From: Candidatus Woesearchaeota archaeon
GTDB taxonomy: Archaea > Nanobdellota > Nanobdellia > Woesearchaeales > JAWBMQ01
Reading direction: 5' to 3'
Assembly (NCBI GenBank): GCA_038828875.1
Contig: JAWBMQ010000002.1
Span: 25,314-89,313, forward strand
Length of the DNA stretch: 64,000 bases
Below the pieces are notes generated by a model that was not told the DNA's origin, ran no database searches, and was given only the letters and a program-made list of their open reading frames with translations. Made by a program: the position numbers and the translations under genes. Positions 14 to 31,148 of the stretch are shown in pieces. How positions within the stretch are numbered: position 1 is the first letter of the stretch; the number at the start of each line of letters is the position of its first letter.

Positions 14-2461
14 TTGAAAAAGATAAGGTTAGGTGTTCAGGAATTTATTTTTTCAGAGATGAAAGAATCAAAATATGAAAATTATTTTATTGTATTAGAT
101 CCAAAAGATAATGAATATATTTATTTTGAATTCAAAGATCCACAATGTAAATATTATAATAAAAAAGTAAAATACGAAGGAAAAGAATTAAAATTAGAAG
201 ATATAGTAATTAAAGTTTTTAATCCAGTAATAGAATTAGAAGAATGTAAAGAAGGAGCGACAAAGATTTCTCAAAGTTATGAAGTATCTTTAAGAGATAG
301 AAATGAAGATATAAATCAATATATAAATCTTTTGAGTTTATCTACAGATCAAGGGAAAATAATTTTCCCAGAAGTAGTGTTATCTTCAATAGAAGAAAAT
401 CAGCCCTATTATTTTGATAAAGAAATTTATTATACTAGATCTCTTAAAAAAGTAGCTAATACAGTAAATATTAATATAAATGATTATTTAGTTGAAAACT
501 GCCCAACAGATAAAGGAGTTATTGTTAAGAACTATGTCTCTATTAAAGATTATTTAGGAAATTATTACAACGTTCCGGTAGAATTTGTTCTAAAGAAAAA
601 GAATGCAGCATTAAATTGTTATGCAAAATTAGAATCAGTTTCTTCAGAATTAGATCTGAGTTCAACTAATGAATTAAAAGTTAACTTTGATTATGGTGCT
701 TGTAGTAAAGTTTTGCTTTATTTAAACAATAATCCAATTGATGTAACAGGTAAAAAAGTTCATACCTTTGAAATAATCAATACAGGAAGGTATGATTTAA
801 AATTAAAATGTGAAAATTCTTTTTTAGGGTTTTCTTGCGAAGATGCAAAATCAGTTAATGTTAAAAGAACAAATACCGAAACGTGTAGTTTTTCAATAAT
901 CCTTGATAGTAATCAATTTAAAGTTGGTGAAACCACAGTATTAAAAGTAGTTGCTAATAATGCAGAAAAATGGAATTTAACAATAATAACTCCTAAAGGA
1001 GTTAAAGTAAATCAACAATATATTAATAGGAGAGAATCTATTAATTTGAAATTTGATGAAGCAGGAACTTATAAACTTGAATTAAATTGTTATATTAATG
1101 GAATGATTAAAGGTAGATCCTCCAAAGAAATAGTAGTTTCACAAGATTCTTCAAATTACGAGTGTTTAGGCTTCAACAATCTCATCATTGATTCCGAGGT
1201 ATTCAAAGAAAATACAATAATTAATAAAGATATTTCAGATTTCTTTTCAAAATTTAGTATTGAAAGAGAAAATAGACCAACATTATTTAATGAACTATTG
1301 CCAGAAGAAGTAGAAATAAAGTTTAATTTTAACAATAATAAAGTTTCCGTTTTCAAAATATCTAATCTTAAACAAAACTATGAAAAAATAAATGAAGTTT
1401 CATATTCTGATTATACTATTAAACTAAATTTAACATATGATAAAGAAAGTAGTAAACTTTTAGCTAATATTTTTTACGATTTTAAAGAAATGCCTGTTGA
1501 TAATAATTGGAATTTTTTTATGAATACTTTAAAAAGTAAAAACATATCATTTAAAGCATTGAAAACATTTGATAAGATTATAGCAATCGAAGTTATAAGT
1601 TATTGTAAAGATCCTAGCAATAGAGATGTTTCAAAAAGAAATGTTTTTAAGTTTGATAAAAATTATGACTCTTTGGAAAGTAATATTAATAATATCACCA
1701 ATTTAATGAATTATTTAGATTGTTTCTACAATACGATAGATTCAACCAACAAAGTTATCACTCGTCAAAATCCATTCCTCTTTGAGTATCCTGCATCAAT
1801 ATTAAAACTTTTGAATGAAAATTATAGGATTAGCATGAATAAGATAATTTTTATTAACGGTGGATCAAGTTCAAGCTACTTCAGTTTTTGTTTAGAATAT
1901 TACCGAAATAGAAATTCAACAAATTACTGTACTAAATTTATCAAGTTAGATGAAAAACTAAATAATGATCTTCAGTTAATAAATAATTCGAATACAATAA
2001 CTTTAGAAGTTCCTTCTAAAACTGAAGTTAAATTATTTTCCCAACTCTTTTATAAAGATAAAAATAATGATGTAGTTAATATGAATTTAGATGAAATTTA
2101 TAGTGGCGTTACTTCTGAGCAATTTAAGTTTGAGTCACAATATCTAAACAAAATCAATTCTGAAATAAATACTGATCTTTTTACAAGAATACTTCTTAAA
2201 AATAATAATGTTTATTTTTATTTTGAGAAATATTCAATTCCTTTGAATCAGCTTAAAAATTATCAGCTTATCTTTACAAATTTTCATACAAATCAATATT
2301 TGTCAAGAGGAATGATGATTTTAAAACTACTTAATGAAATTAAGTTACAAGGAATAACAGATGCCGAAATTGCGGATATCTTTAAATTTAATAAAAATGA
2401 GCAGATACGTGATGGAGAAAATATTAAGAAAGTTAAAGATTTTTGTGGAGAATTTAAATAA
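14..2461 (+). CDS. Large (>=815 aa) beta-rich secreted/surface protein; N-terminus probably lies upstream of the window
   Basis: Long ORF opening with a TTG at 14. The frame stays open back to position 2, so the gene is likely 5'-truncated by the window edge. Paired Cys motifs and an Ig-like composition. No catalytic motifs recognised. Confidence 0.5.
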   Translation: MKKIRLGVQEFIFSEMKESKYENYFIVLDPKDNEYIYFEFKDPQCKYYNKKVKYEGKELKLEDIVIKVFNPVIELEECKEGATKISQSYEVSLRDRNEDINQYINLLSLSTDQGKIIFPEVVLSSIEENQPYYFDKEIYYTRSLKKVANTVNININDYLVENCPTDKGVIVKNYVSIKDYLGNYYNVPVEFVLKKKNAALNCYAKLESVSSELDLSSTNELKVNFDYGACSKVLLYLNNNPIDVTGKKVHTFEIINTGRYDLKLKCENSFLGFSCEDAKSVNVKRTNTETCSFSIILDSNQFKVGETTVLKVVANNAEKWNLTIITPKGVKVNQQYINRRESINLKFDEAGTYKLELNCYINGMIKGRSSKEIVVSQDSSNYECLGFNNLIIDSEVFKENTIINKDISDFFSKFSIERENRPTLFNELLPEEVEIKFNFNNNKVSVFKISNLKQNYEKINEVSYSDYTIKLNLTYDKESSKLLANIFYDFKEMPVDNNWNFFMNTLKSKNISFKALKTFDKIIAIEVISYCKDPSNRDVSKRNVFKFDKNYDSLESNINNITNLMNYLDCFYNTIDSTNKVITRQNPFLFEYPASILKLLNENYRISMNKIIFINGGSSSSYFSFCLEYYRNRNSTNYCTKFIKLDEKLNNDLQLINNSNTITLEVPSKTEVKLFSQLFYKDKNNDVVNMNLDEIYSGVTSEQFKFESQYLNKINSEINTDLFTRILLKNNNVYFYFEKYSIPLNQLKNYQLIFTNFHTNQYLSRGMMILKLLNEIKLQGITDAEIADIFKFNKNEQIRDGENIKKVKDFCGEFK

Positions 2462-2599: not shown

Positions 2600-3139
2600 T
2601 TGAGGGTAATTATGAACTCAATAGTTAATAAAAAATCTCAAACTACCGAAGAATTAACTTTGTGGATAGTTAGAATTATAATTGTTGTTTTAGCATTAAT
2701 TTCTTTATACAATTTTATTAGAGCATTAATAAATACTCCAGTGTATATTTATGAAGTTAAAGGAAAATATCTTTTTGATAGGTTATTTTACACATATGAT
2801 GGAATTTCTTGCATTGAAAAAAGAGAAAAAAATAACATAATTCTGAATTACTGTGTTGATTCTCAACGGTTAAAAACATTTGAATCAAGATTTAGTAAGC
2901 TTTATGACCCTAACTATATTTCTGTTTTTATAGTTCTAATTACTCAATCAGCAAGTGGAAATCAAATAAAAGAAACTTTTGTTTTCAATAAAGATCATTT
3001 TTTAACATTCTTTCCAGAGGCGTTAGCAAATAAAGTTGATTATCATATTCATTATGAAAGCAAGTATGTAAAATTTAGAGATGGAAATGTTGAAACTTTA
3101 GCTAAAATAGGAGCAATTATTATATTTCCAAAAGAATAA
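2600..3139 (+). CDS. Small membrane-anchored protein with a possible class III (type IV pilin-like) signal peptide
   Basis: N-terminus is ...NKKSQ followed by a long hydrophobic helix (LTLWIVRIIIVVLALISLY). RBS-like GAGGGT lies upstream. The NKKSQT motif is shared with the ORF at 19791..21071. Confidence 0.4.
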   Translation: MRVIMNSIVNKKSQTTEELTLWIVRIIIVVLALISLYNFIRALINTPVYIYEVKGKYLFDRLFYTYDGISCIEKREKNNIILNYCVDSQRLKTFESRFSKLYDPNYISVFIVLITQSASGNQIKETFVFNKDHFLTFFPEALANKVDYHIHYESKYVKFRDGNVETLAKIGAIIIFPKE

Positions 3140-3147: not shown

Positions 3148-3678
3148 ATGGTAAAAAAGGCACAACAATATATTACTTTATTCATTGCAATACTTTTAAT
3201 ATTTTTTTTAATTTTTGGTACAGGAGTAATAATTTCATCATTATCTTTACAAGGAGAAAAAATTACATTATTAATCAATAGTGATTTGGAATCTATTTAT
3301 GCAATAATAGATACACCACTTTATTTATCTTTGAACGATATATCTGATAGTAAGATATATTATAAAGATATTGCTTTAGTAAATTTGCTTAGTGTTTCTT
3401 ATCAAAATAGTATAGATTCTTTACAATATATATTTGAAAAGTATAATTCAACATTTAAGCAAGTTTTCAACGATCTTGTTTGTATAGAGCAATATGAATT
3501 AGATTCAGATGGAAAAAAATCAAATATTGTAATGTATAATGAATGTAAAAAATCAAAAGATTCAGTTTTATTGACTTTTGGCAAGTATAATTTTAAGATA
3601 TCAATCCAGAAAGAATCCGATCAAAAGTTTATAATGAATGAAGCTTTAGAATATTTGAAAAATGTACAGCAAAATTAA
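3148..3678 (+). CDS. Small pilin-like membrane protein (KKAQ followed by a hydrophobic helix)
   Basis: The N-terminus MVKKAQ/QYITLFIAILLIFFLIFG resembles an archaeal prepilin (class III) signal. It sits immediately upstream of the giant protein gene and overlaps it by 17 bp. Confidence 0.4.
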   Translation: MVKKAQQYITLFIAILLIFFLIFGTGVIISSLSLQGEKITLLINSDLESIYAIIDTPLYLSLNDISDSKIYYKDIALVNLLSVSYQNSIDSLQYIFEKYNSTFKQVFNDLVCIEQYELDSDGKKSNIVMYNECKKSKDSVLLTFGKYNFKISIQKESDQKFIMNEALEYLKNVQQN

Positions 3679-6600
3679 GAAAAAATTATTTAGAAATAAA
3701 AAAGGAGTTAATCCTTTTGATGTAGTTTTAGTACTTACATTAACTTCAACAATTATATTTTCATCTATGTTTTTAATATATAGAAAATCCTCACCATCAA
3801 TGATACAGGATTTGGTAAATTCTATATATTCTTATAGAGAATCAGTAAATAGAGATATGTTAAATAATTATCAAGATTCTTTGGTTGATGAAATGTTACC
3901 TTGGGAAGTAGTTTTATCAATTTATGAAAGAGACGGAGAAGGAAAAAAATACAGTAATGATTTGCAACAAAAGATAAGTGCTTCTTTTTATGATGATATG
4001 GTAGGATATTTTTTTGTTATGAACAATATTGATGAAAGTTTCTTAATTGATAAAGTTAGAATTTTATTGCAAGATAAAATTGGATACATTCAAGATATAA
4101 AATATGATTTTTACAATGATAAAATTAAGATTTTTTCATATATTAACAAGGAAGAAGCTTTGAAGGCATCAGCACAAGCATATCGTTTAGAATTATCAAA
4201 AAGTAAAGAATTTCTGTTACAAATTGCTAAAAACGACTGGTCAGATAATTGTCTTTATCTTTTTTTAAATTATTCTGAAAATAAATTGACTTTACCTAAT
4301 GCAATAATATCAGATGATGTTGTACCATTTTACTTGACTTATTTAGCTTCTGATATAAGGTGCACTCCTTTTTGTAGAAGTGGATTCTATAATTTTGAGA
4401 TTTCTGGAATTTCATGTGGTAGTAATAAATTATTCAATAGAGATGGAATTGAAGAAGAAGTTTCTTCAGATATACAAAATACAATTATTACTACTATTGA
4501 TAATTTAAAGCAAGTCTTGACTTTTGTCGATAAGTTGCCATTCGATGCAGAAAATAAATTAAAATTAGTTGCATATCTTATTAAATATCATCCTAACAAA
4601 AAAATAGTTTCTTCTTTATCAACTTTAGATTTGAAAGATCCTAAAAGTTTAGAAGATGCAATCTTAACAATATGTACTAAAGATTTAATAGAGAAGGATT
4701 TTTGTTATTCACGATTGAATAAACTTGAAAAAGATTATAATACCTTTAAATATGATTTTGGTTTAACTAAAAATTACGTTTTTGAAAAAAGCGAAATTTC
4801 TAAAGTTAAAGATGAACGGTTATTAGAATGGACTTATCTTTCTAAACCGTTTCCAATTAAAGAAGTTTCAAAATTATATGTTAATTTTACAGAGATATTT
4901 AAAAAATACGATTTAGGTATAATGATTCTTCCAGATAAAAGAAACCTTACAAATATTACAGAATACTTAAATAATTATTATAACGAAAAAAATGAAACAT
5001 TCAATAAAGTTTTTTTCAATTCTTTGTGGGGATTTAATTTTTCGATTTCTAAAGAGAAATCTAACGATACTGTTGTTTTTGAAGAGTTAGTTGGAGTTAG
5101 TTTTCTTTATTCATTATATTTAAATTCTTTAGCCTTAAAAGATTGTGATATAAATTATGATTTCTTCGATCTAAAGAAAAATGTAGGAACAGATAAATAC
5201 AAATACGATAATTTAATTTTTAATTTAGAAACATTTACAGATAGTGAAAAAACGATTGTTGATAATATTACTCTTGAAATAAAATTAACTGATGGAACAA
5301 AAAAATCATACAAAATAAGTTTTTCCCAGATTAGAGCACTTAATAATGTTTCAATTACTAAAGATACTAGTGTTGATAAATTAAAATTATGTACTGAATT
5401 AACATTTTATTATGTGGTTCCTTTTAGCACTTTCGGTGAATTGATTCCAAAAAAATTAGAATATTCAGTTATTGAATCGGATTTAGAAAAAAAATGGAGA
5501 TTATCAAACTATGAGTATAATTTTTTGTTAGTTATTGAAGGAGAAAAAATTTCACAACATATTTTGAAAGATATAAAGGAAGTAACAATAGATAAATGTG
5601 TAAAATTTCAACCATATAATAATGATGCAATTTTGATTGATTTTTCTGAAAATGATGAAAATTGTCAAAACTTGAAGAATGAAATTATTAGCAATAAAGA
5701 TCAATGGGAAATTTCATGTATAAATGGATTAACTAATGATTTTCTTGCAGAATCAACATATATTCCATTAAAAGAAGGTGATTCAAGAGAAAGTAAGTTT
5801 AGAAATCTTAGAGCTAAAGCAAGAACCTCTTATAAATTAGCCGATATTTTAGTTCAGGATTCATATAGTGGAGAGTATTTCTTCTTTGCAGAGATGGTAA
5901 TTTGTTCAGATGATGATTATCCTATTTTTGATAATTCTCTTACAAGTAGAACAATAACTAAAGAAAAATTAGCAAATATTAAGTTGAGAAATTTGAACAA
6001 GAATTATGATGGATATACTTTTATTGTTAATGACATTTTTCAAGAGAAGTTTGCTTTTATAGAATATTACAATCATAAAGATGATGAACCGCCAATGCTT
6101 GCAAAAATTGAAAAATCTTCTGGTATGTATACTATTACTTTTCTAACTGATTTAGATGTTTCTTTAAGAGATGGAGTTTGTTGGTTTTCAAAATCAAATA
6201 CTAATTATTATGAAATCAAAAATTTGAAAGTTTTTGTAAATAAAGATGTTGAAAAATATAATAAAATTTCTTTTGAAACTAATTATTCAAATATTTCAAA
6301 ATACAATTCTCCTTCAATCAGTTATCATACAGAAAATCAAATAAAATTAACTTTTGATATTAATTTTAGTTTTAATTTTACATCTGTAAGTTTGAAAAGA
6401 GCAAATATTTATAATGATATTTTATCAGCATTTATAATGAAAGACATTTGGAATATTACAGTAAGTGCGTTTCCATCTTTATCTTCTGCTTTTGCTTCTG
6501 CTCTTGCTTCAGCTTCTGATTTTTTCAATTGTTCCTTGAAAAATATTAAATTAGATTTAGATCCATATTACATGATTTACATAGCTGAAGGGTTGTTAAA

Positions 6601-9600
6601 CTGTGAATTAGTTTTGGAAGATGAATCTCATGATTTTATAAGTTATGATAAGGAGATTTCTGATTTATTAAATAATAACGAATTTATACTTTATGTTGAT
6701 CAAATGTTGGATGAAAAAAATACGGCGAAAGTTGAATGTTTATCATCTGTAGTTGGAAGTTATACGACAGGTGGTTCTACTTTAGTAGAAGATTGTGGAA
6801 TTGATTATTTTCAAGCTAGTAAAAATTCTATTGAAAAAGGTGATAGTGTAGATTTGAGTTATGGTTTAAAAGCGAATCGTGAATGTTTTTATCATCTAAG
6901 ATGTACTAACGGCTTAATTGACAAACCTATAAAATTAGCTCAACCGTTTGATAGTGATTTTTCTAATACGGATCCTGTTGTATTTGATGATATTGGAACT
7001 TATGAGTGTAAGCTAACTGTTGAACGAGATGGTGCTGAAGTTGCCTCACAAAGTCATATTATAGAGGTATTTGAAAAGTGTCAAGCAGAAATAATTAGTT
7101 TTGAAATAACGCCTTTAGTAGCAAAAAAAAGAGAAAATATTGATTTTAGCTTTGAAGTTAATCTATGTCCAAATAATTTTGTTAATTTATATTGTGTTAA
7201 TAAGGATTCTGGAAGTAAGATCCCTTTTGTTTCAAATAATATCGATTTGATTTACAAGCAAAAAAATTATTTTAATGAAATTGGTAAATATGATTGTAAT
7301 TTGGAAATAACGAGAAATTCAGTAGTAGAAATCTCAGATTCTAAGCAAATAGAAATTTTTGATGTTTCCGCTTTAGTTTCAACACCATCTGCAACTCCCA
7401 CAACATCTTGCACAGCTAAAATAAATTCTTTTGAATCTTCAAAAACTACGCTTAAACTTTCTGAATCTGTTGATTTAAGTTGGGATGCAACAATTTGTTC
7501 AGGTGATGAATTACTTCTTGAATGTAATGATGAAAATGGTATTCAGGAATTAAATTCTAAGGTAAATTCTATTGGTAAAAGAACATTTAATCCAAGTAAA
7601 GAAGGAACATACATTTGTAAGTTAAGCATTTTAAAGAGTTCTGGAGGAGTTGTTAGTAGATCATTATCTTTGAATGTAATGTGTGAAAGAAAAATCAACG
7701 ATTTCTTTGCTTCTCCTATAGAAGTATGTAAAGATGGAGACGTTTCATTATCATGGGATGTTAAGATTTGTAAAAATGAAAAAGTTAATCTTTATTGTAG
7801 TGTTGATAAAACAAACTATGATGTTACTTCTTTAGTTAGTAAAACCTATACTGTTAGTGATATAAATAATCATTTATGTACCCTTTCAATTCTAGATGAT
7901 TCAGGAAATGTTTTAGTATTCATGAACACTAATTTTAAATCACTTTCTTGTGTAGTACCTACATCAACAACCTCTTGTACTCCTAAAATTAATGAATTCA
8001 AATCTTCAAAGAGTAAAATTGAAATTATTAATTTAGCAAATAATGAGAAATTCACATTATCTTGGAATGCAAATTTATGCGGTAATGAAGAGCTTAATTT
8101 AGTTTGTAATCCAGGATCTATTAATCAAAAAGGTTTGTCAGCAAGTGGAACTTATAATGTAGTTGCAAATTTAGATGAAACCTATAGTTGCGAGTTGAAA
8201 TTAATTGATAAATCTGATGGTTCTATTATTGATGCCAAAGATGTTAAGGTTGAAGTTATTGATAAAAGAATAACATTCACATTAAATACTAATAAAATTG
8301 AATATTCAAGTACTGTGAAAGCAACATGGACGGCACCTGCAAAAGCTAAATCAGTTAAATTAATTTTAGATTATGATTCTTTGACTGATATTGAAGAGAA
8401 ATTATCTACTTCAGGAAGTAAAGATTATCAATTAAAAGATTTAGTAAAATTTATTTATATTGTAGAGTTTAGAGATGGTAGTTCAAAAAATATAGAATTG
8501 CCTGTATGTGTTTTACCAAAAGCTAGTTTATCTGTACAGCCGATTGGGTGTAAAAAATACAAAGTTGATTTAATTTTAGAGCATAATGAGAGATTTTTAA
8601 AAAATCAAATTAAAGATGTATCCATTTCTGATAAATCCGGATTAAGTGGAAGTTATTCATCTAATAAAATGAGTTATTCAACACAATTAGAAAACAAAGC
8701 ATCTGATTTAAATGATAAAGTAATAATTATGTTTAATAATTTTTGTAATACTCAAGAGGTTACATATAGATATCCACCAATGACTATTCCTTCATTTACA
8801 TTTTCTGGAAGTGTTCAACATAATGAATTTTTAGTTGAAGATTGTAATAAGAACACTTTTATACAAAAATATACTACAAAAATTACAGGTAATAATTTTT
8901 TGAATTATTTTGATAAATTTAGCTTACGTAGTATCACATCAGGAAATGAGTTTATTAAGGATTTATCTTTCAATGAATTTAACTCTAAAACAACTTATGT
9001 TTCAGGAGATATTGAAATAAATTTTGATAAAAGTGGAAATAAATTAGAAATTATTAGAAAGAATGTTCAAGCACCATGTGGATCTTTAGAATCTCCTGTA
9101 ACGCACCTTTTAACTCTTACAGATTGTAATGGTAAAAATTATGAAGTTTATTTTGAATTTACTTTTAAAAAGAAAGGAACAACAGTTTCGTCAACTTCAC
9201 CTAGTTCTTCAAAATCATGCAAAATTGATTCTTTTACAGTAACTCCATCTAAATTAGATTTAGCTAAAATTAAAAAATTTACAATAAGTTATAGTCTTTC
9301 AAATTCAATTGAAAATAAATTATATGTAAAAGGTCCAAAAGATACAGTATTTCAAGATAAGAGTGGGATATTAACACAAAAAGAATTAGTTCCAACTCAA
9401 TTAGGTAAATATATTTTTAATTTAACTTGCAAAGGAAATGATGGAATTATTAATAGTAAAGTTGTTGAAGCAGAGGTTGTAGAATCTTGTTATATAGATA
9501 AATTTACACTTTCATCAGAAAAAGTAAGTATAGGACAATCTGTTAAAATAACTGCTAATTTTAGGAATTCACAACTAAGAAAACTTTTAATAAATCGAAT

Positions 9601-11611
9601 TCAACCAAAGCAAGAAAAAATAGTGGATGAAACAATAACTAAGGAAAATCATGAATATACTTGGAATAATATAAAAGAATTAGGAACTTATAATATTACA
9701 ATTCAATGTAATTCATCATCATCTAATGAAATTGTTCAACAATCAAAAATCGTGGAAGTTTCAAGTCCTTGTGAATCTACTACATTTAGTGTGGATAAAA
9801 CTAATTTACTTGTTGGTGAAAATGTTAAAATTACTTATTCAGTATCAAACGGCGCAAAACTAAATATTTCGATTACATCATCAAAAACGACGATACCAGA
9901 GCAATCATTTACGTCTTCAGGATCAACCAGTCATAAATTTGATAATGAAGGAATTTATAAAATAATAGGAAAATGTTTTGAAGGTGATGTTTTAAAAATT
10001 AAAAAGGAGATAGAGATTAATGTTATCAAACCTAAAACTACAAAAGAATGCAAGCCAGTAACTGAATTTAAGATAGATTCTAAAAAAATTAATAATAATC
10101 TAATTTTAAAGGATTTTAATCAAAATTTACAGTTAGACAAATTTTCTTATGAATTTGAGATTTCATTTAATGGGAAAGTTTCTAGTGAAGATCAACGCAT
10201 AGTTTACGAAGAACCTAAAAAATTAAATTTAGTTTTTTCTATTGATACGAAGAAAGGTAGAAAGGAATTTACTTTTTCAATTTCTGATACTTCTAAAAGT
10301 TCACAAGATTATTTTTTAATAAGTAATTATGGTGACGTAAAGAAAGAGAATGTCAATGATTTGTTGAATAAAATTATTGAGGATCCTCTTAATAATAAAT
10401 TTGGCTTCCCTAATGAAAATAACGATGATTTTTATCTGATTAGTTTATTTTTTACTTATGATCCTACTAACAAAATAATAAAAGTAAAATTAAATTATTA
10501 TTTCAAAATATTTTTTTACCAGCCCAGATTGAAAAGGTTGAAAAATAATCCAGGTACCCCTTTTTATTTGATTCCAACAGGGCTAGCTTTAAACTTTGAC
10601 AATAGCCTAATTTTTAACATAGACAAAATTTGTGAAAATTCAAACAGAAAGGTTCAGATAAAATTAAATGTTTATGACAAGGTATTTTCACAAATCTTTA
10701 ATAAGATTAATGATGCACGTGAAAAATTGTATAATTTGTTAAATAATAAGAAAGTTGGTTTTATTACTAGTGATAGATCATTAATTGGAAACAAAGATTA
10801 TATCTTCAAATATGATGGATTCTATGATCCATTGTTCAAAAATCAACAATTCTTTCCTTATTTAAGTATTATTAAGTATTATTTTTTTGATACTAACAAA
10901 GGTACATCCTATATTCTTATTTGTCTTTCTAGAGAGAGCGAACTTTATTGTGCTAAACCAATTACTTATGGTGAATTAGAACATATTCTAGAAAAAAATA
11001 GCAAAACTTTAGTATTTCTTGATACTATTGATTCTTCGTTTGCAAAATTGTATAGTTCTACATTCGGATATGTTTATTTTAAAGATTATACCGCTCGAGG
11101 GTATTGGTTTTTATCATTTATTCCACAAGTAGTGTTAGTAAATGCTAAAATGAATATTATTGATGATATCCTCTTAGACGAGGGATCAAGTGGAGCAGTA
11201 CGGATACAATATTCTTCAGGAGTACACTATAGTGCATTTAAAGAACGTTTTTTAAATGAAATAAAAAGTCCAAATTCATATACTGAAAATATTGTTAATG
11301 TTGAAAATGTTGCTAAAATTATAAAATTTAAATCTAGAGATTATGTTATTGGTAAGGTAAAATATAATGAAATAATGGAATATTATGAAGAATATTTACT
11401 AAATTTTAAAAATATAGCTTCTTTTGATTTCATTTTTTCTAATTATTTTTTATCATCATTTGAGACAACTTCTTTATTCTACGGAGAACGAAGAGGAGTT
11501 ATGATTATTTATCCTTATAATCATGCTAATAGAAAATACATGGTTAAAAAATATCTAAATACGAAAAGTGATAATTCAAAGGAATTAGTTTCAATAACTA
11601 CAATTCAATAA
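3662..11611 (+). CDS. Giant (2649 aa) cell-surface repeat protein, putative adhesin
   Basis: Uninterrupted 7.9-kb ORF. The N-terminus is basic, then KKG, then a hydrophobic helix (VNPFDVVLVLTLTSTIIF), which looks like a class-III-type signal or anchor. The central region has at least six repeated ~90-aa modules, each with a Cys pair and a Trp (e.g. C..KIN.F.SS...L.LSW.A..C...L.L.C), typical of Ig-like or adhesin domains. There is also an S/A-rich linker. Confidence 0.7.
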   Translation: MYSKIKKKLFRNKKGVNPFDVVLVLTLTSTIIFSSMFLIYRKSSPSMIQDLVNSIYSYRESVNRDMLNNYQDSLVDEMLPWEVVLSIYERDGEGKKYSNDLQQKISASFYDDMVGYFFVMNNIDESFLIDKVRILLQDKIGYIQDIKYDFYNDKIKIFSYINKEEALKASAQAYRLELSKSKEFLLQIAKNDWSDNCLYLFLNYSENKLTLPNAIISDDVVPFYLTYLASDIRCTPFCRSGFYNFEISGISCGSNKLFNRDGIEEEVSSDIQNTIITTIDNLKQVLTFVDKLPFDAENKLKLVAYLIKYHPNKKIVSSLSTLDLKDPKSLEDAILTICTKDLIEKDFCYSRLNKLEKDYNTFKYDFGLTKNYVFEKSEISKVKDERLLEWTYLSKPFPIKEVSKLYVNFTEIFKKYDLGIMILPDKRNLTNITEYLNNYYNEKNETFNKVFFNSLWGFNFSISKEKSNDTVVFEELVGVSFLYSLYLNSLALKDCDINYDFFDLKKNVGTDKYKYDNLIFNLETFTDSEKTIVDNITLEIKLTDGTKKSYKISFSQIRALNNVSITKDTSVDKLKLCTELTFYYVVPFSTFGELIPKKLEYSVIESDLEKKWRLSNYEYNFLLVIEGEKISQHILKDIKEVTIDKCVKFQPYNNDAILIDFSENDENCQNLKNEIISNKDQWEISCINGLTNDFLAESTYIPLKEGDSRESKFRNLRAKARTSYKLADILVQDSYSGEYFFFAEMVICSDDDYPIFDNSLTSRTITKEKLANIKLRNLNKNYDGYTFIVNDIFQEKFAFIEYYNHKDDEPPMLAKIEKSSGMYTITFLTDLDVSLRDGVCWFSKSNTNYYEIKNLKVFVNKDVEKYNKISFETNYSNISKYNSPSISYHTENQIKLTFDINFSFNFTSVSLKRANIYNDILSAFIMKDIWNITVSAFPSLSSAFASALASASDFFNCSLKNIKLDLDPYYMIYIAEGLLNCELVLEDESHDFISYDKEISDLLNNNEFILYVDQMLDEKNTAKVECLSSVVGSYTTGGSTLVEDCGIDYFQASKNSIEKGDSVDLSYGLKANRECFYHLRCTNGLIDKPIKLAQPFDSDFSNTDPVVFDDIGTYECKLTVERDGAEVASQSHIIEVFEKCQAEIISFEITPLVAKKRENIDFSFEVNLCPNNFVNLYCVNKDSGSKIPFVSNNIDLIYKQKNYFNEIGKYDCNLEITRNSVVEISDSKQIEIFDVSALVSTPSATPTTSCTAKINSFESSKTTLKLSESVDLSWDATICSGDELLLECNDENGIQELNSKVNSIGKRTFNPSKEGTYICKLSILKSSGGVVSRSLSLNVMCERKINDFFASPIEVCKDGDVSLSWDVKICKNEKVNLYCSVDKTNYDVTSLVSKTYTVSDINNHLCTLSILDDSGNVLVFMNTNFKSLSCVVPTSTTSCTPKINEFKSSKSKIEIINLANNEKFTLSWNANLCGNEELNLVCNPGSINQKGLSASGTYNVVANLDETYSCELKLIDKSDGSIIDAKDVKVEVIDKRITFTLNTNKIEYSSTVKATWTAPAKAKSVKLILDYDSLTDIEEKLSTSGSKDYQLKDLVKFIYIVEFRDGSSKNIELPVCVLPKASLSVQPIGCKKYKVDLILEHNERFLKNQIKDVSISDKSGLSGSYSSNKMSYSTQLENKASDLNDKVIIMFNNFCNTQEVTYRYPPMTIPSFTFSGSVQHNEFLVEDCNKNTFIQKYTTKITGNNFLNYFDKFSLRSITSGNEFIKDLSFNEFNSKTTYVSGDIEINFDKSGNKLEIIRKNVQAPCGSLESPVTHLLTLTDCNGKNYEVYFEFTFKKKGTTVSSTSPSSSKSCKIDSFTVTPSKLDLAKIKKFTISYSLSNSIENKLYVKGPKDTVFQDKSGILTQKELVPTQLGKYIFNLTCKGNDGIINSKVVEAEVVESCYIDKFTLSSEKVSIGQSVKITANFRNSQLRKLLINRIQPKQEKIVDETITKENHEYTWNNIKELGTYNITIQCNSSSSNEIVQQSKIVEVSSPCESTTFSVDKTNLLVGENVKITYSVSNGAKLNISITSSKTTIPEQSFTSSGSTSHKFDNEGIYKIIGKCFEGDVLKIKKEIEINVIKPKTTKECKPVTEFKIDSKKINNNLILKDFNQNLQLDKFSYEFEISFNGKVSSEDQRIVYEEPKKLNLVFSIDTKKGRKEFTFSISDTSKSSQDYFLISNYGDVKKENVNDLLNKIIEDPLNNKFGFPNENNDDFYLISLFFTYDPTNKIIKVKLNYYFKIFFYQPRLKRLKNNPGTPFYLIPTGLALNFDNSLIFNIDKICENSNRKVQIKLNVYDKVFSQIFNKINDAREKLYNLLNNKKVGFITSDRSLIGNKDYIFKYDGFYDPLFKNQQFFPYLSIIKYYFFDTNKGTSYILICLSRESELYCAKPITYGELEHILEKNSKTLVFLDTIDSSFAKLYSSTFGYVYFKDYTARGYWFLSFIPQVVLVNAKMNIIDDILLDEGSSGAVRIQYSSGVHYSAFKERFLNEIKSPNSYTENIVNVENVAKIIKFKSRDYVIGKVKYNEIMEYYEEYLLNFKNIASFDFIFSNYFLSSFETTSLFYGERRGVMIIYPYNHANRKYMVKKYLNTKSDNSKELVSITTIQ

Positions 11612-11653: not shown

Positions 11654-12946
11654 ATGATAGAACTCTTTAGAATTTCAAAGAAAGCTAAGTTTTTGTTTTT
11701 ATGCTTATTTTTTTCTTTAATGATTTCCGTTTCAGGAATTCAACAATTTCATCCTGCTTCAGAAATTGAACCAGGTACTTTTGGTACTGATTTGTATATT
11801 GGAAATTATTCTTTTCCTGATTCTTTAAGTGTTGCAAATAATCTTTACGTTGGTCAAAGAGTTGGTATTGGTGTTTCTAATCCAAGAGATGCTTTAGAGG
11901 TTGTTGGTAATTTAATAGTTTCTGGAGGAGATCGATACATAGGTTTAGTTGATAATTTTGCATTAGGAATAAGAACAAATAACATTGATAGAATTTATAT
12001 TACTAATTCTGGAAACGTAGGCATAGGAACAACAAGTCCTGGTTATAAGTTAGATATAAGTGGAACCTTAAGGAGTACCCAAGATGCATATTTAGCAACA
12101 AGTAGTGGTAATGTAGGCATAGGAACAACAAGTCCGAGTACAAAGTTACAAGTGGTAGGGGATATAGGATTAAGTGGTGCGGATAGATTTATAGGAACAA
12201 TAGATAATTATGCATTAAATTTAAGGACGAATAATGCTAATAGGGTAACAATAACTAATGCAGGAAATGTTGGTATAGGTACAACAAGTCCTGGTTATAA
12301 ATTAGATATAAGTGGAACAATAAGGAGTACAGATTCGACATATTTAGCTACATCCTCAGGGAATGTAGGTATAGGGAGTATAAGTGCAAGTTATAAATTA
12401 GATATAAGTGGAACATTAAGGAGTACTCAAGATGCATATTTAGCAACAAGTAGCGGTAATGTAGGCATAGGAACAACAAGTCCGAGTACAAAGTTACAGG
12501 TGGTAGGGGATATAGGATTAAGTGGTGCGGATAGATTTATAGGAACAATAGATAATTATGCATTAAATTTAAGGACGAATAATGCTAATAGGTTAACAAT
12601 AACTAATGCAGGAAATGTTGGTATAGGTACAACAAGTCCTGGTTATAAATTAGATATAAGTGGAACCTTAAGGAGTACAGATTCGACATATTTAGCTACA
12701 TCCTCAGGGAATGTAGGTATAGGGAGTACAAGTGCAAGTTACAAATTAGATATAAGTGGAACATTAAGGAGTACTCAAGATGCATATTTAGCAACAAGTA
12801 GTGGAAACGTAGGCATAGGAACAACAAATCCCCAAGCGAAGTTGCATGTAGAAGGTAAAATAAGGGTTAATAATGCAATTCAAGATTCAGGAGGTACAGA
12901 TAGAATAACATTCTCAGGAACTAATGTTATAATTACGATAGGATGA
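11654..12946 (+). CDS. Gly-rich fibre-like repeat protein with a Sec signal peptide (tail-fibre / trimeric-fibre-like repeats)
   Basis: Hydrophobic N-terminal signal. Eight copies of the motif SSGNVGIGTTSP(G/S)YKLD(I/V)SGT.RST, ending ...GNVGIGTTNPQAKLHVEG. This resembles the N.GIGTT.P.AKLHV repeats found in phage tail-fibre and fibre-domain proteins. Confidence 0.65.
   Translation: MIELFRISKKAKFLFLCLFFSLMISVSGIQQFHPASEIEPGTFGTDLYIGNYSFPDSLSVANNLYVGQRVGIGVSNPRDALEVVGNLIVSGGDRYIGLVDNFALGIRTNNIDRIYITNSGNVGIGTTSPGYKLDISGTLRSTQDAYLATSSGNVGIGTTSPSTKLQVVGDIGLSGADRFIGTIDNYALNLRTNNANRVTITNAGNVGIGTTSPGYKLDISGTIRSTDSTYLATSSGNVGIGSISASYKLDISGTLRSTQDAYLATSSGNVGIGTTSPSTKLQVVGDIGLSGADRFIGTIDNYALNLRTNNANRLTITNAGNVGIGTTSPGYKLDISGTLRSTDSTYLATSSGNVGIGSTSASYKLDISGTLRSTQDAYLATSSGNVGIGTTNPQAKLHVEGKIRVNNAIQDSGGTDRITFSGTNVIITIG
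12101..12840. repeat. Near-identical tandem direct repeat, 348-bp unit x ~2.1, within the coding sequence
   Basis: Copies starting at 12101, 12449 and 12797 are nearly base-identical (compare ...agtagtggtaatgtaggcataggaacaacaagtccgagtacaaagttaca...). A degenerate ~108-bp sub-repeat is also present from about 11990. Confidence 0.75.
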
Positions 12947-13013: not shown

Positions 13014-15089
13014 TCAATTTAACGGTAAACCGCTCCAAAATTTCCAATCTTCAGAAGGAATTAAGTAAAGGTTATGACCATATTCACCAACTCTATACTT
13101 ATGATAAACGTTATCCCAATTTACATCACTCCATGAAACTCCTGAATTTCCACGAACGTAAACTGCATTAGCAATATTTCTCCAAGCAGCAAACAATTGT
13201 TCATTAGGATCACTCCAACCTTCAGAATTGATAGGTCCTTTATAGCCAGATTCTACTAATTTCTTAACAATTTCTTTCAAAGGTAATTCTCCTTCACCAG
13301 GTGGAAGTTGAGAATGACCGCCAAGAGAATCGACTAAATGCACATTTCCAATAACTTTTTCATCAATCAGTTTTTGAACTTTTTCCTTGAACCATTCTAA
13401 GAAAAGTTCGTCTTTTTTATCAGGATTATTAGCTTTAAAATAATTTTTCCATAAAGCCATATGTTCAGTATCTAATGTCATTTTAATATGTTTTTCAGCT
13501 AATTCTTTAGCTTTGTTAACATCTTTAACATAAAAAGGATTCTTAATTTTTTTTCCATTTTCTTCAATTTCAGGACTTGTTAACATTTCGACCATTTTTT
13601 TCCTTGCTTCTTTTATTAAATATAAAATTTCATCAGGATGAGTTCCAAATCCTCTTCCAGCTTCCCAATTTTCAGGAGCAATGTAAATAGGTTTAGGTAA
13701 ATTGTTTTTTTGAGTATATTCTAAAGCTTTTAATCCCATTTTAGCTAAAGTTTCTATACTTTTGTTAATTGCTACATCTTCTAAAGCCTTTATTCTTTCT
13801 TTTCTAGCTTCAATTTCTTTAAGCTGTTCTTCATAGCTTATCATTGCTTCGTATCTTCTTTTAGCTTCAACTTGTAAAGTTTGTATATATTTTTCTACAG
13901 CATCAACTTTTTTAAGTTCATCTACAGGAACATTAAAGCCTGCAACGTGCAACATATCAACATGAGTTAATAAATATCTTTTCAAAGGTTCAGGTAATTC
14001 TTTATTATTTTGAATTATATCTTCTCTCTTTTTCAACTCTTCTTTGAATTGTTCTAATGCAATTATACTTTTCTTAATTTGCTCAAATTCTTTCATCATT
14101 TCTATTTTTCTAGATTCTGCTTCTTTTTCTTGTTTTTCCATAGAAAGTAATACTAATGATAGATGAGGTTTATCATAAAGTTCATTTACATCTTTAATTA
14201 CTCCTTTATTTTTCATCTCAATTGCATTACTTGCTATTTTAGCAGCAATAGCTTTTAATTTTTCATCCTTTATTTTTTCAATTTCTTTCAATTCTTTGCA
14301 ATTTTTCAACAATTCGCCTGCCTTTTTAAAATCTTCAAAAGATGCTAAATCTACTTTAATATTTCCATTTTCCCAAGGTTGCTTAAATCTTATTTCGTTT
14401 CCTTTAATTTCAAAACTTTCCAAAGCAATAGGAATTGTAGTTTTTTCAGAAATTCCGCTAATTTCACCTTTTTCAACATCTACAACGTAATAAGGTTTTT
14501 CGCTTGTAACTACAAAACTTCCGTATTTTTTTTCTTCTTCTTCATAAACATTTTTCAAAGCACTTATTCTTGGTTGTCCTGGTACTTCAGCTACGTGAAC
14601 AACAATAGCAACACCGTCACTTTTACTTTCTTGTTTTTTTGGCATAATGTCTGATGCAAATTTCATCACATGATCAACTTTATTCATAAACAAATTAATT
14701 CTATCTTCACTTATTTTTCCTCTTTCAGGATCTATTCCAGAAAGTCCTTCTACATAAGTAGGAACATGAACGCTATTAACTTCAACTCCAGTAGCAAATT
14801 GTAATTCTCTTAACTCCTGCCTTTTTAAATTTCCATATCCTTCTACTCCATAACCCATTGCTTGTTCATTTGTAGCTAATTCAACTTTAGTTGTACCTTT
14901 TCTAGAAGCTTGAGCTAATGTTTTTCTAAAATCTCCTCCAGCATTGGGTCCTTCTGTAATGGTCATACCTATTCTACCTGTGCTTATTATTGGTTGCTCA
15001 AGTTTTTTATCTATGGCTAATTGAGCATTCTTTTGCTTATCCATTAATTCCTTAAATTCTTTTTCCCATTCAGGTACATAGTAGCTCAT
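13014..15089 (-). CDS. Xylose-isomerase-like TIM-barrel (sugar phosphate isomerase/epimerase, AP-endonuclease-2 fold) protein interrupted by a ~250-aa coiled-coil insertion
   Basis: The N-terminal segment (NSVHVP..., HVAEVPG) and the C-terminal segment (LDTEHMA...; NVHLVDSLGGHSQLPPGEGELPLKEIVKKLVESGYKGPINSEGW) match conserved metal-binding strands of the XylA-like TIM barrel. The middle segment is K/E-rich heptad-like. Confidence 0.45.
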   Translation of the reverse strand: MSYYVPEWEKEFKELMDKQKNAQLAIDKKLEQPIISTGRIGMTITEGPNAGGDFRKTLAQASRKGTTKVELATNEQAMGYGVEGYGNLKRQELRELQFATGVEVNSVHVPTYVEGLSGIDPERGKISEDRINLFMNKVDHVMKFASDIMPKKQESKSDGVAIVVHVAEVPGQPRISALKNVYEEEEKKYGSFVVTSEKPYYVVDVEKGEISGISEKTTIPIALESFEIKGNEIRFKQPWENGNIKVDLASFEDFKKAGELLKNCKELKEIEKIKDEKLKAIAAKIASNAIEMKNKGVIKDVNELYDKPHLSLVLLSMEKQEKEAESRKIEMMKEFEQIKKSIIALEQFKEELKKREDIIQNNKELPEPLKRYLLTHVDMLHVAGFNVPVDELKKVDAVEKYIQTLQVEAKRRYEAMISYEEQLKEIEARKERIKALEDVAINKSIETLAKMGLKALEYTQKNNLPKPIYIAPENWEAGRGFGTHPDEILYLIKEARKKMVEMLTSPEIEENGKKIKNPFYVKDVNKAKELAEKHIKMTLDTEHMALWKNYFKANNPDKKDELFLEWFKEKVQKLIDEKVIGNVHLVDSLGGHSQLPPGEGELPLKEIVKKLVESGYKGPINSEGWSDPNEQLFAAWRNIANAVYVRGNSGVSWSDVNWDNVYHKYRVGEYGHNLYLIPSEDWKFWSGLPLN

Positions 15090-15173
15090 ATTCTCTTTTT
15101 AGTATTTTATAATATATAAATATGTTTTTTCAATTCATAACTTTTATAAATTTTGACTACTTTCAAGTAGAAA

Positions 15174-16049
15174 ATGCCACGATCTGATAATTTTTGGGAA
15201 TTTTTTGATGGATTTTTTAATGAGAATAATTCTTATAGAAATAATTACTATAATGACTTTCTGAGGACAAATCAAAAATATTATGAAAATATAATCTTGG
15301 ATTATTTAGTATTAGAGCCAGAACTGCTTCATTCTGAATTTAAAGCGTATCAGATGCAGGATTTACTTATGTTACTAAATCTAGAAAATAGGGTCTCGTT
15401 GATAAAAAATATAAATTCTTCTTATTCAAGAATAAAGGAAATTTCAACAAAGAAAGAAATGAATTATTATCCAATTGATGTTTTTGAAAAATTTACAAGA
15501 TTATATAATGCATATTCTCAGTTAAAAGAATACAAAAATCAATTAGATTCAAATCTTAGACAATTAATTTCCTATGTAAACATTCCTTCTTACTACGACG
15601 TAGATTTTGATGATTTGTTTGTTTTTCTTGAAACAAATTCAAGGTATTATAATAAAATGAATGAATTATATGAAGGCTATAGCAATTTAAAAAATCAATT
15701 AGAAAAATGGGTTAATGCTTATGAACTTTTGATGGAAAAAAATCTTTTAAAAGAGTTTATAGAATTAGGAAAACAATGGAAAGAAGAGGTTAAAAAAAGA
15801 AACATTCCTGAATCATCTTATAATGATCAAGCACTTTTAAAGGAATTTAAAGATATGCATGCTAATTTAGAAAGAAGTTATACTAATTTGAAGAATATAG
15901 AGGTAAGAGAAAGATATTCTAAGATATATGCTGCTGTCAAAGATGTAATCAATTCAAATATGTTTCCTGTAGAGGTTTTATTTATGTTAAAGAATCAACT
16001 TATGAGGAAGAAGTTGCAGAGAAAAGAATATCAAGATTATAGAGATTAG
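15174..16049 (+). CDS. Hypothetical helical K/E/N/Y-rich protein
   Basis: 291-aa ORF with no recognisable motifs. Confidence 0.5.
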   Translation: MPRSDNFWEFFDGFFNENNSYRNNYYNDFLRTNQKYYENIILDYLVLEPELLHSEFKAYQMQDLLMLLNLENRVSLIKNINSSYSRIKEISTKKEMNYYPIDVFEKFTRLYNAYSQLKEYKNQLDSNLRQLISYVNIPSYYDVDFDDLFVFLETNSRYYNKMNELYEGYSNLKNQLEKWVNAYELLMEKNLLKEFIELGKQWKEEVKKRNIPESSYNDQALLKEFKDMHANLERSYTNLKNIEVRERYSKIYAAVKDVINSNMFPVEVLFMLKNQLMRKKLQRKEYQDYRD

Positions 16050-19425: not shown

Positions 19426-19803
19426 TTACCTTTTATTCTTTATTAGAAAAATTCTAGCAACAATAGGATTGTAATGAGTAAAATTTCCGGAAATAAAAAG
19501 ATTATAAATTAGTTCAGCATTCTCATTAACAAATTCTAACTTTAAGCCAGAAACATAAACCTTACATCTTAAATTGAGCTTTTCATAATATTTAGTACAT
19601 ATTTCAGAAGCATAGGTTAAATTTCTTTCAATGACCGCATTTCTAAAATCCTCATCTTCTAATAGTTTTTCAATATGAATTTTTTGATCTAATCTATTAG
19701 CTTTGAAAAAAAGAAAAACCCCTAGCAAAATTATGCTAACTAGTAAAATGCCACCAATCGTTGCTTCTAAAGTTTTAATAAAACTTTTTTTCATTCTTTC
19801 CAC
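19426..19803 (-). CDS. Small N-terminally membrane-anchored protein (possible pilin-like)
   Basis: N-terminus is MERMKKSFIKTLEATIGGILLVSIILLGVFLFF. Confidence 0.4.
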   Translation of the reverse strand: MERMKKSFIKTLEATIGGILLVSIILLGVFLFFKANRLDQKIHIEKLLEDEDFRNAVIERNLTYASEICTKYYEKLNLRCKVYVSGLKLEFVNENAELIYNLFISGNFTHYNPIVARIFLIKNKR

Positions 19804-21071: not shown

Positions 21072-21409
21072 TTTCTTTTTTGTTTTCAGTGTTGTAAAAT
21101 TTCAATTGCTTTTTCAACTCTATGTTTTCATTCGTTATTCTTTGAAGCATTAAAAACAATTGCTTATTTTCTTTTCTTAATCGGGCTATTTGTTTATCCT
21201 TGTGTTTGATTATTTCGATAATTTCCCTTTTGTTTTTCTTACTTGATTTTTTTAAATTCATAAAATAAATAATTAAATTTTCGTAAAACTCAAAATACTT
21301 TTCAAAAATTTTTATAAATATTTTTAACATCTTTGATTTTTTAGTATTCTTAAATTATAAAAGTTACTAACATAAAATTTTTAAATTAAGTGTTTGTTTT
21401 TAAAATCTA

Positions 21410-24400: not shown

Positions 24401-24451
24401 AAATATTTTTTGTGCAATAAACTTTATAAATTTTATTTCTTCAACAAGTTT

Positions 24452-24649
24452 ATGGAAATTTACATTGAAAGAACAAATAAAAAGTTTCAAAAGAATGTTG
24501 ATAAAATTAAAGTGATAGATCTACTAAAGGAGTTAAATATAAATTTGGAAGAGGTTTTAGTAACTAAGAATGATGAATTAGTTGATGAAAATGAAATTTT
24601 AGAAAATGATGATAAAGTTAAGATAATTTCAGTTATCTCAGGAGGCTAA
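24452..24649 (+). CDS. ThiS/MoaD/SAMP-like beta-grasp sulfur-carrier protein (65 aa, C-terminal Gly-Gly)
   Basis: MEIYIE...VKIISVISGG followed by stop. Its stop lies 1 bp before the ncsA start. Confidence 0.7.
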   Translation: MEIYIERTNKKFQKNVDKIKVIDLLKELNINLEEVLVTKNDELVDENEILENDDKVKIISVISGG

Positions 24650-29255: not shown

Positions 29256-29267
29256 TGCGGTGAAAAC

Positions 29268-31114: not shown

Positions 31115-31148
31115 TTTGTTTATTTTTTATATTTTTTGAGGTGGGATA

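Follow-up and report, generated by a model that had tools for sequence, protein, structure and literature searches.

How DPANN archaea attach to their hosts and exploit them is largely unknown, and whether some of them turn to bacterial rather than archaeal targets is an open question. Both matters are raised by a locus in the genome of a Candidatus Woesearchaeota archaeon, the right-hand part of which lies in a stretch of 64,000 nucleotides (assembly GCA_038828875.1, contig JAWBMQ010000002.1, positions 25,314 to 89,313; hereafter the window) and includes the gene of a protein of 2649 amino acids (aa), G2. What do the products of this locus do, and why do most of them begin in the same way? 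We favor, with a probability of about 0.5, the reading that the locus specifies an apparatus for attaching to a host or prey and for breaching its wall, the components of which are exported and organized via prepilin-type N-termini, with G2 and its paralog G1 as giant adhesins accompanied by the small protein sB.

The window has ~25% GC and is archaeal in its gene content, with a DTD2-type deacylase, an archaeal-type ProRS, NOG1, RadA and an S_layer_C protein. The focal genes are only the right end of a locus of 15 genes and ~30.4 kb, all on one strand. Its left part was read from public contigs carrying exactly G2, and ~91 kb of this genome was inspected in all (the 64-kb window, 17 kb with the left part of the locus plus flanking DNA, and 10 kb of right flank). 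The gene order begins with proteins of 181 aa, 492 aa and 53 aa, followed by giant0 (1886 aa), a 101-aa protein and an M23 endopeptidase (497 aa); in the middle part are a 163-aa protein, an SLT lytic transglycosylase (579 aa), a 230-aa protein with a Sec signal, sB1 and G1 (2203 aa); and the right end consists of sA2, sB2, G2 and the tail-fibre-like gene d430. The left border is housekeeping DNA (MC1, tRNA-Ala and a CCA-adding enzyme), and the right border lies just past d430. The part of the locus within the window is as follows, with an arrow marking the putative processing site, from which positions −1 and +1 are counted:

14–2461, plus strand: C-terminal 815 aa of G1 (P0002, 2203 aa), a tandem paralog of G2; the first open reading frame (ORF) of the window

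2612–3139, plus strand: sA2, 175 aa, NKKS↓QTTEELTLW (Gln at +1, Glu at +4 and +5), with two conserved Cys

3148–3678, plus strand: sB2 (P0006), 176 aa, its stop codon overlapping the ATG of G2

3662–11611, plus strand: G2 (P0001), 2649 aa, the focal gene

11654–12946, plus strand: d430, 430 aa, with a Sec signal and VGIGTTSPxxKL repeats, directly downstream of G2

Twelve of the 15 locus proteins share an N-terminus made of a basic leader of 4–15 residues that ends in two Lys or Arg residues and then Gly, Ala or Ser, polar or acidic residues at +1 to +5, and a hydrophobic helix of ~20 residues. The bearers of this motif include the M23 endopeptidase, the SLT lytic transglycosylase and the paralogous giant G1 (MSQVMHKKG↓INPFDVVLV, with its start upstream of the window), as well as the three proteins that a preliminary description of the window had picked out: sA2 (MNSIVNKKS↓QTTEELTLWIVRIIIVVLALISLY; core NKKS↓QTTEELTLWIVRIIIVV), sB2 (MVKKA↓QQYITLFIAILLIFFLIFGTG; core VKKA↓QQYITLFIAILLIFF, VKKA↓QQYITLFIAILLIFFLIF) and G2 (...FRNKKG↓VNPFDVVLVLTLTSTIIFSSMF; core NKKG↓VNPFDVVLVLTLT), in which the Asp that had been pointed out at +5 is indeed present. 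The three ORFs are as had been described (2600 or 2612–3139, 175–179 aa; 3148–3678, 176 aa; and 3662–11611, 2649 aa), and each starts with a KK-[G/A/S] leader. Two details change: the start of sA2, which had been placed at a TTG at 2600, is better assigned to the ATG at 2612, which stands behind a GAGGG; and the helix had been said to follow the KK leader immediately, yet a 7-residue polar and acidic spacer separates KKS from the helix in sA2.

The substrates of archaeal prepilin peptidases must have Gly, Ala or Ser at −1 and a charge at −2, and their processing site has to precede the hydrophobic (H) domain (PMC4371748). The charge at −2 is critical for the archaeal peptidases, and Gln at +1 together with Glu at +5 is typical of EppA substrates, the sites of which read KG↓QV or RA↓QI (PMC4371748). 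We applied these published criteria in a rule scan that also called for an uncharged 15-aa window with a mean hydropathy of ≥2.0, starting ≤8 residues from +1. The scan is positive for 11 of the 15 locus genes, d430 being a Sec-type false positive among them, against 3 of the 59 other genes of the window; in 10 locus proteins the site lies ahead of the H-domain. The M23 protein and sA2 fail only through one Lys or Arg inside the helix, and five other window proteins with an N-terminal hydrophobic segment also fail.

Position by position, the agreement with these substrates extends to the orthologs. The −1 residues are Gly, Gly, Ala and Ala in the giants; Ala, Ser, Ser and Ala in sB; Ser, Ser and Cys in sA; Ser, Ala and Ser in the M23 family; Ser, Ala and Gly in the family of the 163-aa protein (f163); Ala or Ser in the SLT family; and Ser, Gly and Ser in the family of the 101-aa protein (f101). 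Lys or Arg occupies −2, and mostly also −3, in all 12 motif-bearing locus proteins; the exceptions at −2 are found among orthologs, with Val in the f163 proteins of L006 and L012 (NKVG) and Ala in the f101 protein of L012 (MKAS, if cut after Ser). Gln at +1 is present in sA, sB, the 53-aa gene and an ORF at 19791; an acidic residue stands at +5 in sA and in all giants, where Asp at this position is invariant (4/4). The family patterns are:

Giants: KK[GA]↓xN[PS]FD, with K13, K14, N17, F19 and D20 invariant in four orthologs of 26–32% overall identity

sA family: K[KR][SC]↓QTxEE, with K, Q, T, E and E invariant (Q+1, E+5) in orthologs at 45–58% identity

sB family: KK[AS]↓Q[QS]Y

M23 family: KK[SA]↓ExExLLM

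f163 family: K[KRV][SAG]↓[ED]V[SA]G

SLT family: K[KA][AS]↓[AS]S..E

f101 family: [KRA][SG]↓..xxW

The motif is kept among orthologs at 27–45% identity from three other metagenome-assembled genomes (MAGs), and across the seven families the N-terminal ~32–40 residues are 1.1–2.2 times better conserved than the remainder of the protein; two Sec-signal families of the locus show the opposite trend, with ratios of 0.85 and 0.51. The N-terminal pattern exceeds chance expectation. Orthologs without the pattern, which the preliminary description would have counted against a prepilin-type signal, were not encountered among those of the giants, sA and sB, all of which retain it. Its assignment of these N-termini to class III signals holds for the −1 and −2 residues and the H-domain, but no pilin or archaellin hidden Markov model (HMM) matches them.

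The leader is also found outside the locus. Its NKKSQT version had been reported to recur at 19791, and it does so in a minus-strand ORF (MKMRFNKKSQTEH) with its start codon at 21071, one of a trio of genes in which Pfam finds no match (19426–21330):

19426–19803, minus strand: 125 aa, MKKS↓FIKTLEATIGGILLV, conserved in L005

19791–21071, minus strand: 426 aa, NKKS↓QTEHIDEIFALLVF, conserved in L005

21055–21330, minus strand: 91-aa coiled-coil-like protein

A further minus-strand ORF, at 23651–24490, specifies a 249-aa protein when read from an internal Met, and its N-terminus (MKKS↓SLLTVWILIGTILAALG) is a rule-positive class III-like signal; it has no Pfam match.

What kind of protein is carried by this N-terminus is best seen in G2, the parts of which are as follows:

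3662–3781, plus strand: aa 1–40, a 15-aa basic leader ending in NKKG with a putative cut after G15, then VNPFD and the hydrophobic helix

3782–5551, plus strand: N-domain, to aa ~620–630, Cys-rich with 8 invariant Cys and the motif YLTYLASDxxCxPFCxxGFYNF; orphan

6794–8254, plus strand: five tandem immunoglobulin (Ig)-like modules, aa 1045–1531, ~90 aa each, with a Cys/Trp pattern

9218–10024, plus strand: three diverged Ig-like modules, aa 1853–2121 (seed-only HMM E=2e-6 for aa 1853–1936)

10049–11608, plus strand: C-domain, aa ~2130–2649 (~520 aa), orphan, with the motif D[FI]IF[ST]NYW...ERRG

The segments between these domains (aa ~630–1045 and 1531–1853) have no assignment, and there is no membrane anchor at the C-terminus. 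The body of the protein had been described as consisting of Ig-like modules; the eight modules are real, but they make up only ~28% of G2. Structure prediction, proposed earlier as a check on the repeats, bears them out: AlphaFold2 (AF2) models one module, from an alignment of 14, as an Ig-like fold of seven strands with a predicted local distance difference test (pLDDT) score of 97.3 and a predicted template modeling (pTM) score of 0.86. Foldseek relates the model to Ig, PKD and FnIII accessory domains (the PKD domain of ColG, 2y72, E=6e-4; GbpA; RbmA; and S-layer Ig domains), with a query TM-score (TMq) of up to 0.77; the Ig and PKD models of Pfam all stay below threshold. The whole protein has no Pfam, PHROG or PDB match, and profile or sequence searches of the PDB with the N-domain, the C-domain and whole G2 gave no match. 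AF2 of the N-domain, from an alignment of four sequences, reached a pLDDT of 44, at which the fold is not interpretable, and no fold search was made from it.

G1 and G2 align by blastp over their N-terminal ~620 aa (30% identity, E=6e-60) and C-terminal ~600 aa (22%, E=2e-11). An HMM of the module, built from G1 and G2 only, counts eight copies in G2, four in G1, three in P0003 (E=3.5e-17 to 1e-8), which is independent of the HMM building, and none in P0004. From N- to C-terminus, a giant has a conserved orphan domain, zero to eight Ig-like modules and a second conserved domain that is likewise an orphan. A chance ORF in AT-rich DNA is ruled out as an explanation of G2 by its orthologs and by the confident model of the module; the protein is probably an N-terminally anchored, surface-exposed, adhesin-like protein of a host-interaction locus.

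The giant family is small. An exhaustive HMMER search of 1.84 billion representatives with G2 aa 1–1200 returned four members only: G2, G1, P0003 (1946 aa) and P0004 (1328 aa). The giant N-domain was not found in 2.9 million viral contigs, and neither it nor the N-terminal patterns of the SLT family had relatives in the JGI metagenomes; word-index searches with G2, giant0 and sB2, a weak method for AT-rich orphans, returned only the query itself or its tandem paralog. A scan of GTDB representative genomes added one further MAG with the locus, which brings the locus-bearing MAGs to four (GCA_038830485.1, GCA_038889815.1, GCA_038888395.1 and JAWBOS01). Synteny in three further MAGs covers a giant0-like gene, a ~100-aa gene, an M23-family gene, a ~165-aa gene, an SLT-family gene, a Sec-signal protein, sA, sB, a giant and a d430-like gene, and in one of these MAGs the locus lies between the housekeeping neighbors that it has in the window. 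The locus is found in a narrow clade of Woesearchaeota.

The giants come with a small partner. sB1 precedes G1 as sB2 precedes G2, the two being 37% identical, and the sB–giant pair has been duplicated as one unit. In five of five sB–giant pairs the stop codon of sB overlaps the ATG of the giant by 1–20 nt, which indicates that the two are translationally coupled and stoichiometric partners. Most junctions elsewhere in the locus are tight or overlapping; the gap between G1 and sA2 is AT-rich and 150 nt long (2462–2611), contains TTTAAAAATAAAAAT plus the GAGGG ahead of the ATG at 2612, and may hold an internal promoter for an sA2–sB2–G2 cassette.

Two enzymes carry the same N-terminus as the giants. 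The M23 gene scores 85.7 bits against a cutoff of 28.7 (E=2.6e-24), with HxxxD and HxH present and its HKGID and HLHY motifs conserved; the SLT gene scores 27.3 bits against a Pfam cutoff of 21.3, and its catalytic Glu-Ser, GLGQI and RRYNG are kept in three lineages. In both, the motifs needed to cleave bacterial peptidoglycan are intact. In PHROG they match families of phage endolysins, tape-measure and lytic-tail proteins. Over its first ~160 aa the M23 protein matches the standalone f163 family (HHalign 99%, E=3e-18, 144 columns), and the enzyme is a fusion of an f163-family module with a grafted catalytic domain. In the L006/L012 lineage the M23-family gene (L012 6653–7129) specifies 158 aa, with the carrier module kept and the M23 domain absent; because this lineage keeps only the module, the module can evidently stand alone. 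The same archaeon encodes an S-layer protein:

51672–54056 of the window: S-layer protein gene (S_layer_C)

The wall hydrolases therefore most plausibly act on another organism. Lytic transglycosylases of Woesearchaeota have already been read as antibacterial (PMC9723730), and a recognized Sec or Tat signal is present in only 32% of archaeal peptidoglycan hydrolases (PMC12352652). The enzyme part of the locus is headed by giant0, which has a long, apparently helix-rich middle rich in Lys and Glu and two hydrophobic segments at its extreme C-terminus, with no Pfam, PHROG or PDB relative. Might it be a scaffold, or a tape-measure-like protein? Its positions are:

L008 9611–15271 and L012 952–6375: giant0 (P0005), 1886 aa

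A d430-like gene follows the giant in every lineage. The PDB matches of d430 are mosaic adhesive trimer (MAT) fibres of Bdellovibrio (8ond, Bd2133, E=4.4e-9; 8ojn, Bd3182, E=1.5e-7; and also Bd1334), which recognize prey (PMC10769870), and it also matches phage tail fibres, both in PHROG (tail fiber phrog_9942, E=2.8e-36) and through hits to cyanophages and pelagiphages. By these similarities d430 is a protein like phage tail fibres and Bdellovibrio MAT fibres, predicted to form a trimeric beta-helix. The N-terminal ~60 aa of the family (IQQxHPASEIEPGTFGTD...) are highly conserved between lineages, and its length ranges from 430 aa in the window to 923 aa (L005 15909–18680); the L006 gene was called at 223 aa, and the L012 copy (15081–15659) ends at the contig end. 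A link to host attachment had already been suggested for the giant, and the idea gains strength from the two wall hydrolases that share its kind of N-terminus and from this Bdellovibrio-MAT- or tail-fibre-like gene.

How might such parts work together? If the N-termini are class III, prepilin-type signals, the proteins would first be inserted by Sec and then be processed behind the Gly, Ala or Ser by a prepilin peptidase whose gene lies elsewhere. The retained helices could then polymerize into a short fibre resembling a pilus or pseudopilus, or could keep the proteins together at the surface in the manner of a bindosome. Either assembly would present the Ig-stalk giants and the two wall-cutting enzymes to a bacterial host or prey cell, together with the trimeric fibre exported by Sec, and the cell would be gripped and have its wall opened locally. 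In this scheme sB would be the adaptor of G2, and G2 itself a modular pilin of very large size, placed at the tip or decorating the assembly; the filament tipped by the giant that had been pictured earlier is one form that this could take. We put the cleavage of the G2 N-terminus by a prepilin peptidase and its use in filament-type assembly a little below even odds, and the cut itself, assembly as a filament or like a bindosome, and the bacterial nature of the target each remain conjectural steps of this scheme. The most far-reaching version, an archaeal attack organelle against bacteria that derives from a type IV filament and is built of modular 'pilins' bearing SLT, M23 and megadalton-scale Ig-stalk adhesins, and that docks onto a bacterial cell with the help of a tail-fibre-like recognition protein and opens its peptidoglycan, we consider unlikely.

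A simpler explanation of the N-termini is that they are plain signal anchors, uncleaved and of type II (N-in, C-out), in which the KK pair reflects the positive-inside rule in a proteome rich in Lys, and that the locus provides adhesins and wall hydrolases that are tethered to the membrane and reach out through the S-layer, with neither a prepilin peptidase nor a filament taking part. We take this seriously as a possibility while judging it somewhat improbable, and several results that weigh against prepilin-type processing fit it well. Fragments comprising the N-terminal 56–60 aa of 10 proteins returned only generic transmembrane (TM) noise from Pfam and NCBIfam at E≤10, a threshold at which the pilin models PF07790 Pilin_N, PF04021 Class_IIIsignal, PF01917, PF07963 N_methyl and TIGR02537 all stayed unmatched, and profiles of sA and sB found no solved pilin in the PDB. 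Pfam searches with every window gene yielded no type IV filament (TFF) machinery, and nothing for G2, sA and sB. Neither an A24 prepilin peptidase (PibD/FlaK/EppA) nor a PilB/ArlI-type ATPase or PilC/ArlJ-type platform protein was found in the ~91 kb inspected, and the locus lacks all three in 4/4 MAGs, the flanks fetched likewise holding no TFF ATPase or platform. Several of the proteins have 5–9 polar residues ahead of the helix, or a Lys or Arg within it (M23, sA); giant0 has a conserved N-terminal TM segment with no small residue at −1; one sA ortholog has Cys at −1, the sole exception to Gly, Ala or Ser within each family; and in a genome of 25% GC, composition and the positive-inside rule would lead one to expect Lys-rich leaders ahead of TM helices. 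Absence of the machinery near the locus is not decisive, because archaeal pilin genes are often unlinked to it (PMC4371748); DPANN archaea are among those with an Epd-like TFF 'system 1', and genes for large, Ig-rich, adhesin-like proteins are frequent in the TFF loci of archaea (bioRxiv 10.64898/2026.04.22.720090). Signal anchors would leave unexplained why −1 is restricted to Gly, Ala or Ser in seven families and three to four lineages, why Asp at +5 is invariant in the giants and Gln at +1 with Glu at +5 in sA, and why the N-termini are the best-conserved part of these proteins while the Sec signals of the same locus drift; the five window proteins that have N-terminal hydrophobic segments without the motif likewise speak for something more specific than anchoring.

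The phage-like affinities of d430 (phrog_9942) and of the M23 and SLT domains, together with a tRNA gene to the left of the locus, could instead point to an origin in a mobile element or virus, as a degenerate prophage, a tailocin-like element or a conjugation-type surface module like those of Gram-positive type IV secretion systems (T4SS). Such systems typically have TM-anchored SLT/M23 hydrolases like VirB1, small TM proteins like VirB8, and giant adhesins. The tRNA gene is:

L008 6344–6418, minus strand: tRNA-Ala(TGC), ~0.9 kb left of the first locus gene

Inspection showed neither an integrase nor a repeat nor a GC break, and for want of an integrase and a GC break we rejected a tRNA-adjacent genomic island despite the nearby tRNA. 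A conjugation or T4SS module was rejected because the 15 genes and their orthologs include no VirB4, no VirD4 and no P-loop ATPase of any kind, and a prophage or tailocin because hallmark genes are missing, PHROG matches are limited to M23, SLT and the fibre, and the chromosomal flanks are conserved. Neither the locus nor the DNA beside it holds a gene for a capsid, portal, terminase, sheath, tube, integrase, relaxase, VirB4 or VirD4; PHROG has no match for G2, giant0, sA, sB or the 181-, 492- and 163-aa proteins; the giant N-domain is absent from the viral contigs searched; the GC content is unbroken; and the housekeeping flanks recur in a second MAG. Taken together, a mobile-element or viral origin is very unlikely. 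Still less probable, and in our estimate highly so, is that the locus is turned on the archaeon itself, with giants and small proteins as S-layer-associated or division parts and the hydrolases as relics or enzymes of its own envelope. The S-layer gene in the window would suit envelope maintenance, as would the loss of the M23 domain in one lineage, which marks it as dispensable; yet bacterial murein is the substrate of SLT and M23 domains and this archaeon encodes an S-layer protein, the catalytic motifs of the SLT enzyme are conserved in all lineages, a family present in only four MAGs is ill suited to a core envelope role, and a tail-fibre- or MAT-type gene is a recognition device.

If a host- or prey-directed apparatus with prepilin-type N-termini is what the locus encodes, which described systems does it resemble? 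Archaeal type IV pilins processed by EppA or PibD, such as the Epd proteins of Methanococcus maripaludis, are alike in the basic leader, the charged −2 residue, the small −1 residue and the H-domain of ~20 aa, and also in the clustering of their genes, as in minor-pilin sets (PMC4371748). The locus differs in lacking a pilin HMM match, in having Ser as the commonest −1 residue and polar spacers of up to 9 residues, in lacking a nearby ATPase, platform or peptidase, and in its proteins, some of them enzymes, the lengths of which span 53 to 2649 aa. A parallel in design is offered by the modular type IV pilins of bacteria, of which >1,200 are known, the largest listed being 860 aa (from a CPR bacterium), and the bulky modules of which are expected at the tip (PMC8179133). 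Like PilB and PilC of Streptococcus sanguinis, the locus proteins join a putative carrier module with a class III-type N-terminus to a grafted functional module, the M23 protein being an f163-like module plus a peptidase and the giants carrying Ig-like repeats; unlike them, they come from an archaeon, lack IPR012902 or the N_methyl motif, bear SLT and M23 payloads and, in G2, are ~3 times longer.

Large non-pilin proteins that use a class III signal and TFF machinery for surface display rather than for a classical pilus have a precedent in the Sulfolobus bindosome, which consists of sugar-binding proteins (PMC4371748). The bindosome subunits are solute-binding and have a dedicated BasEF ATPase and platform, whereas the cargo here is adhesin-like giants and wall hydrolases, with no machinery found. 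The likeness to Bdellovibrio bacteriovorus MAT fibres and phage tail fibres is limited to d430, which shares the repeat of the trimeric beta-helix stalk and the capping-loop-like VGxGTTxPxxKL; G2 is unrelated, and d430 itself carries a normal Sec signal, its N-terminal region being specific to the clade. Large lytic murein transglycosylases have been described in other Woesearchaeota (AR20 and the Lake A MAGs), where the SLT/GH23 domain was likewise read as acting on bacterial walls (PMC9723730, PMC12352652), but these are reports of isolated genes, with no prepilin-like N-terminus, M23 companion, giant partners or 15-gene locus described. The Ig-rich adhesin-like proteins of archaeal TFF loci (such as arCOG05616 and arCOG07037) are also large and multi-Ig-fold and have been proposed to serve in adhesion (bioRxiv 10.64898/2026.04.22.720090), and their genes are linked to pilin genes and adjoin TFF ATPase and platform genes; G2 has no adjacent machinery, and no homology to these proteins was found, G2 having no match in Pfam or the PDB and only four family members.

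The ingredients are thus familiar (class III-type signals, modular pilins, Ig-repeat adhesins, peptidoglycan hydrolases and tail-fibre-like adhesins), and their union in a single conserved locus of an archaeon is not described in the literature searched. On the favored hypothesis, wall-cutting enzymes and giant adhesins would reach the surface via prepilin-type N-termini as one co-evolving apparatus. If the N-termini are processed, the modular-pilin principle would extend from bacteria to archaea, to enzymatic payloads and to proteins three times larger than those listed. Should the attack organelle be real, G2 would be the largest pilin-type protein known, and the locus would add a functional class to the type IV filaments and provide a concrete mechanism for cross-domain parasitism or predation by DPANN archaea. 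If the N-termini are not processed, the locus would still be a compact orphan set of host-interaction genes, and it could mark a bacterium-associated lineage of Woesearchaeota.

The remainder of the window yielded several minor observations. A tRNA-Phe(GAA) gene on the minus strand (28424–28499), called by ARAGORN and by Rfam (70 bits), falls within the 3′ end of an ORF at 27415–28551 on the plus strand, which is therefore probably over-extended. The plus strand then carries, at 28557–37185, ~15 consecutive small ORFs of 118–414 aa that have no Pfam match, are not paralogous by blastp and look rich in Lys, Glu and Tyr by eye; an N-terminal hydrophobic segment is present only in the last (36562–37185). 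This run, at 28.5–37 kb, was considered as a pilin cluster and rejected, as it lacks TM segments and paralogy. Three tandem paralogs of 310, 320 and 330 aa follow on the plus strand at 37642–40592, with 39–41% identity (E~1e-60), two of which (38623–39585 and 39600–40592) have weak transglutaminase-like (DUF553) matches just under the Pfam threshold. After this three-paralog array come two tandem calcineurin-like phosphoesterases on the minus strand (40580–42339).

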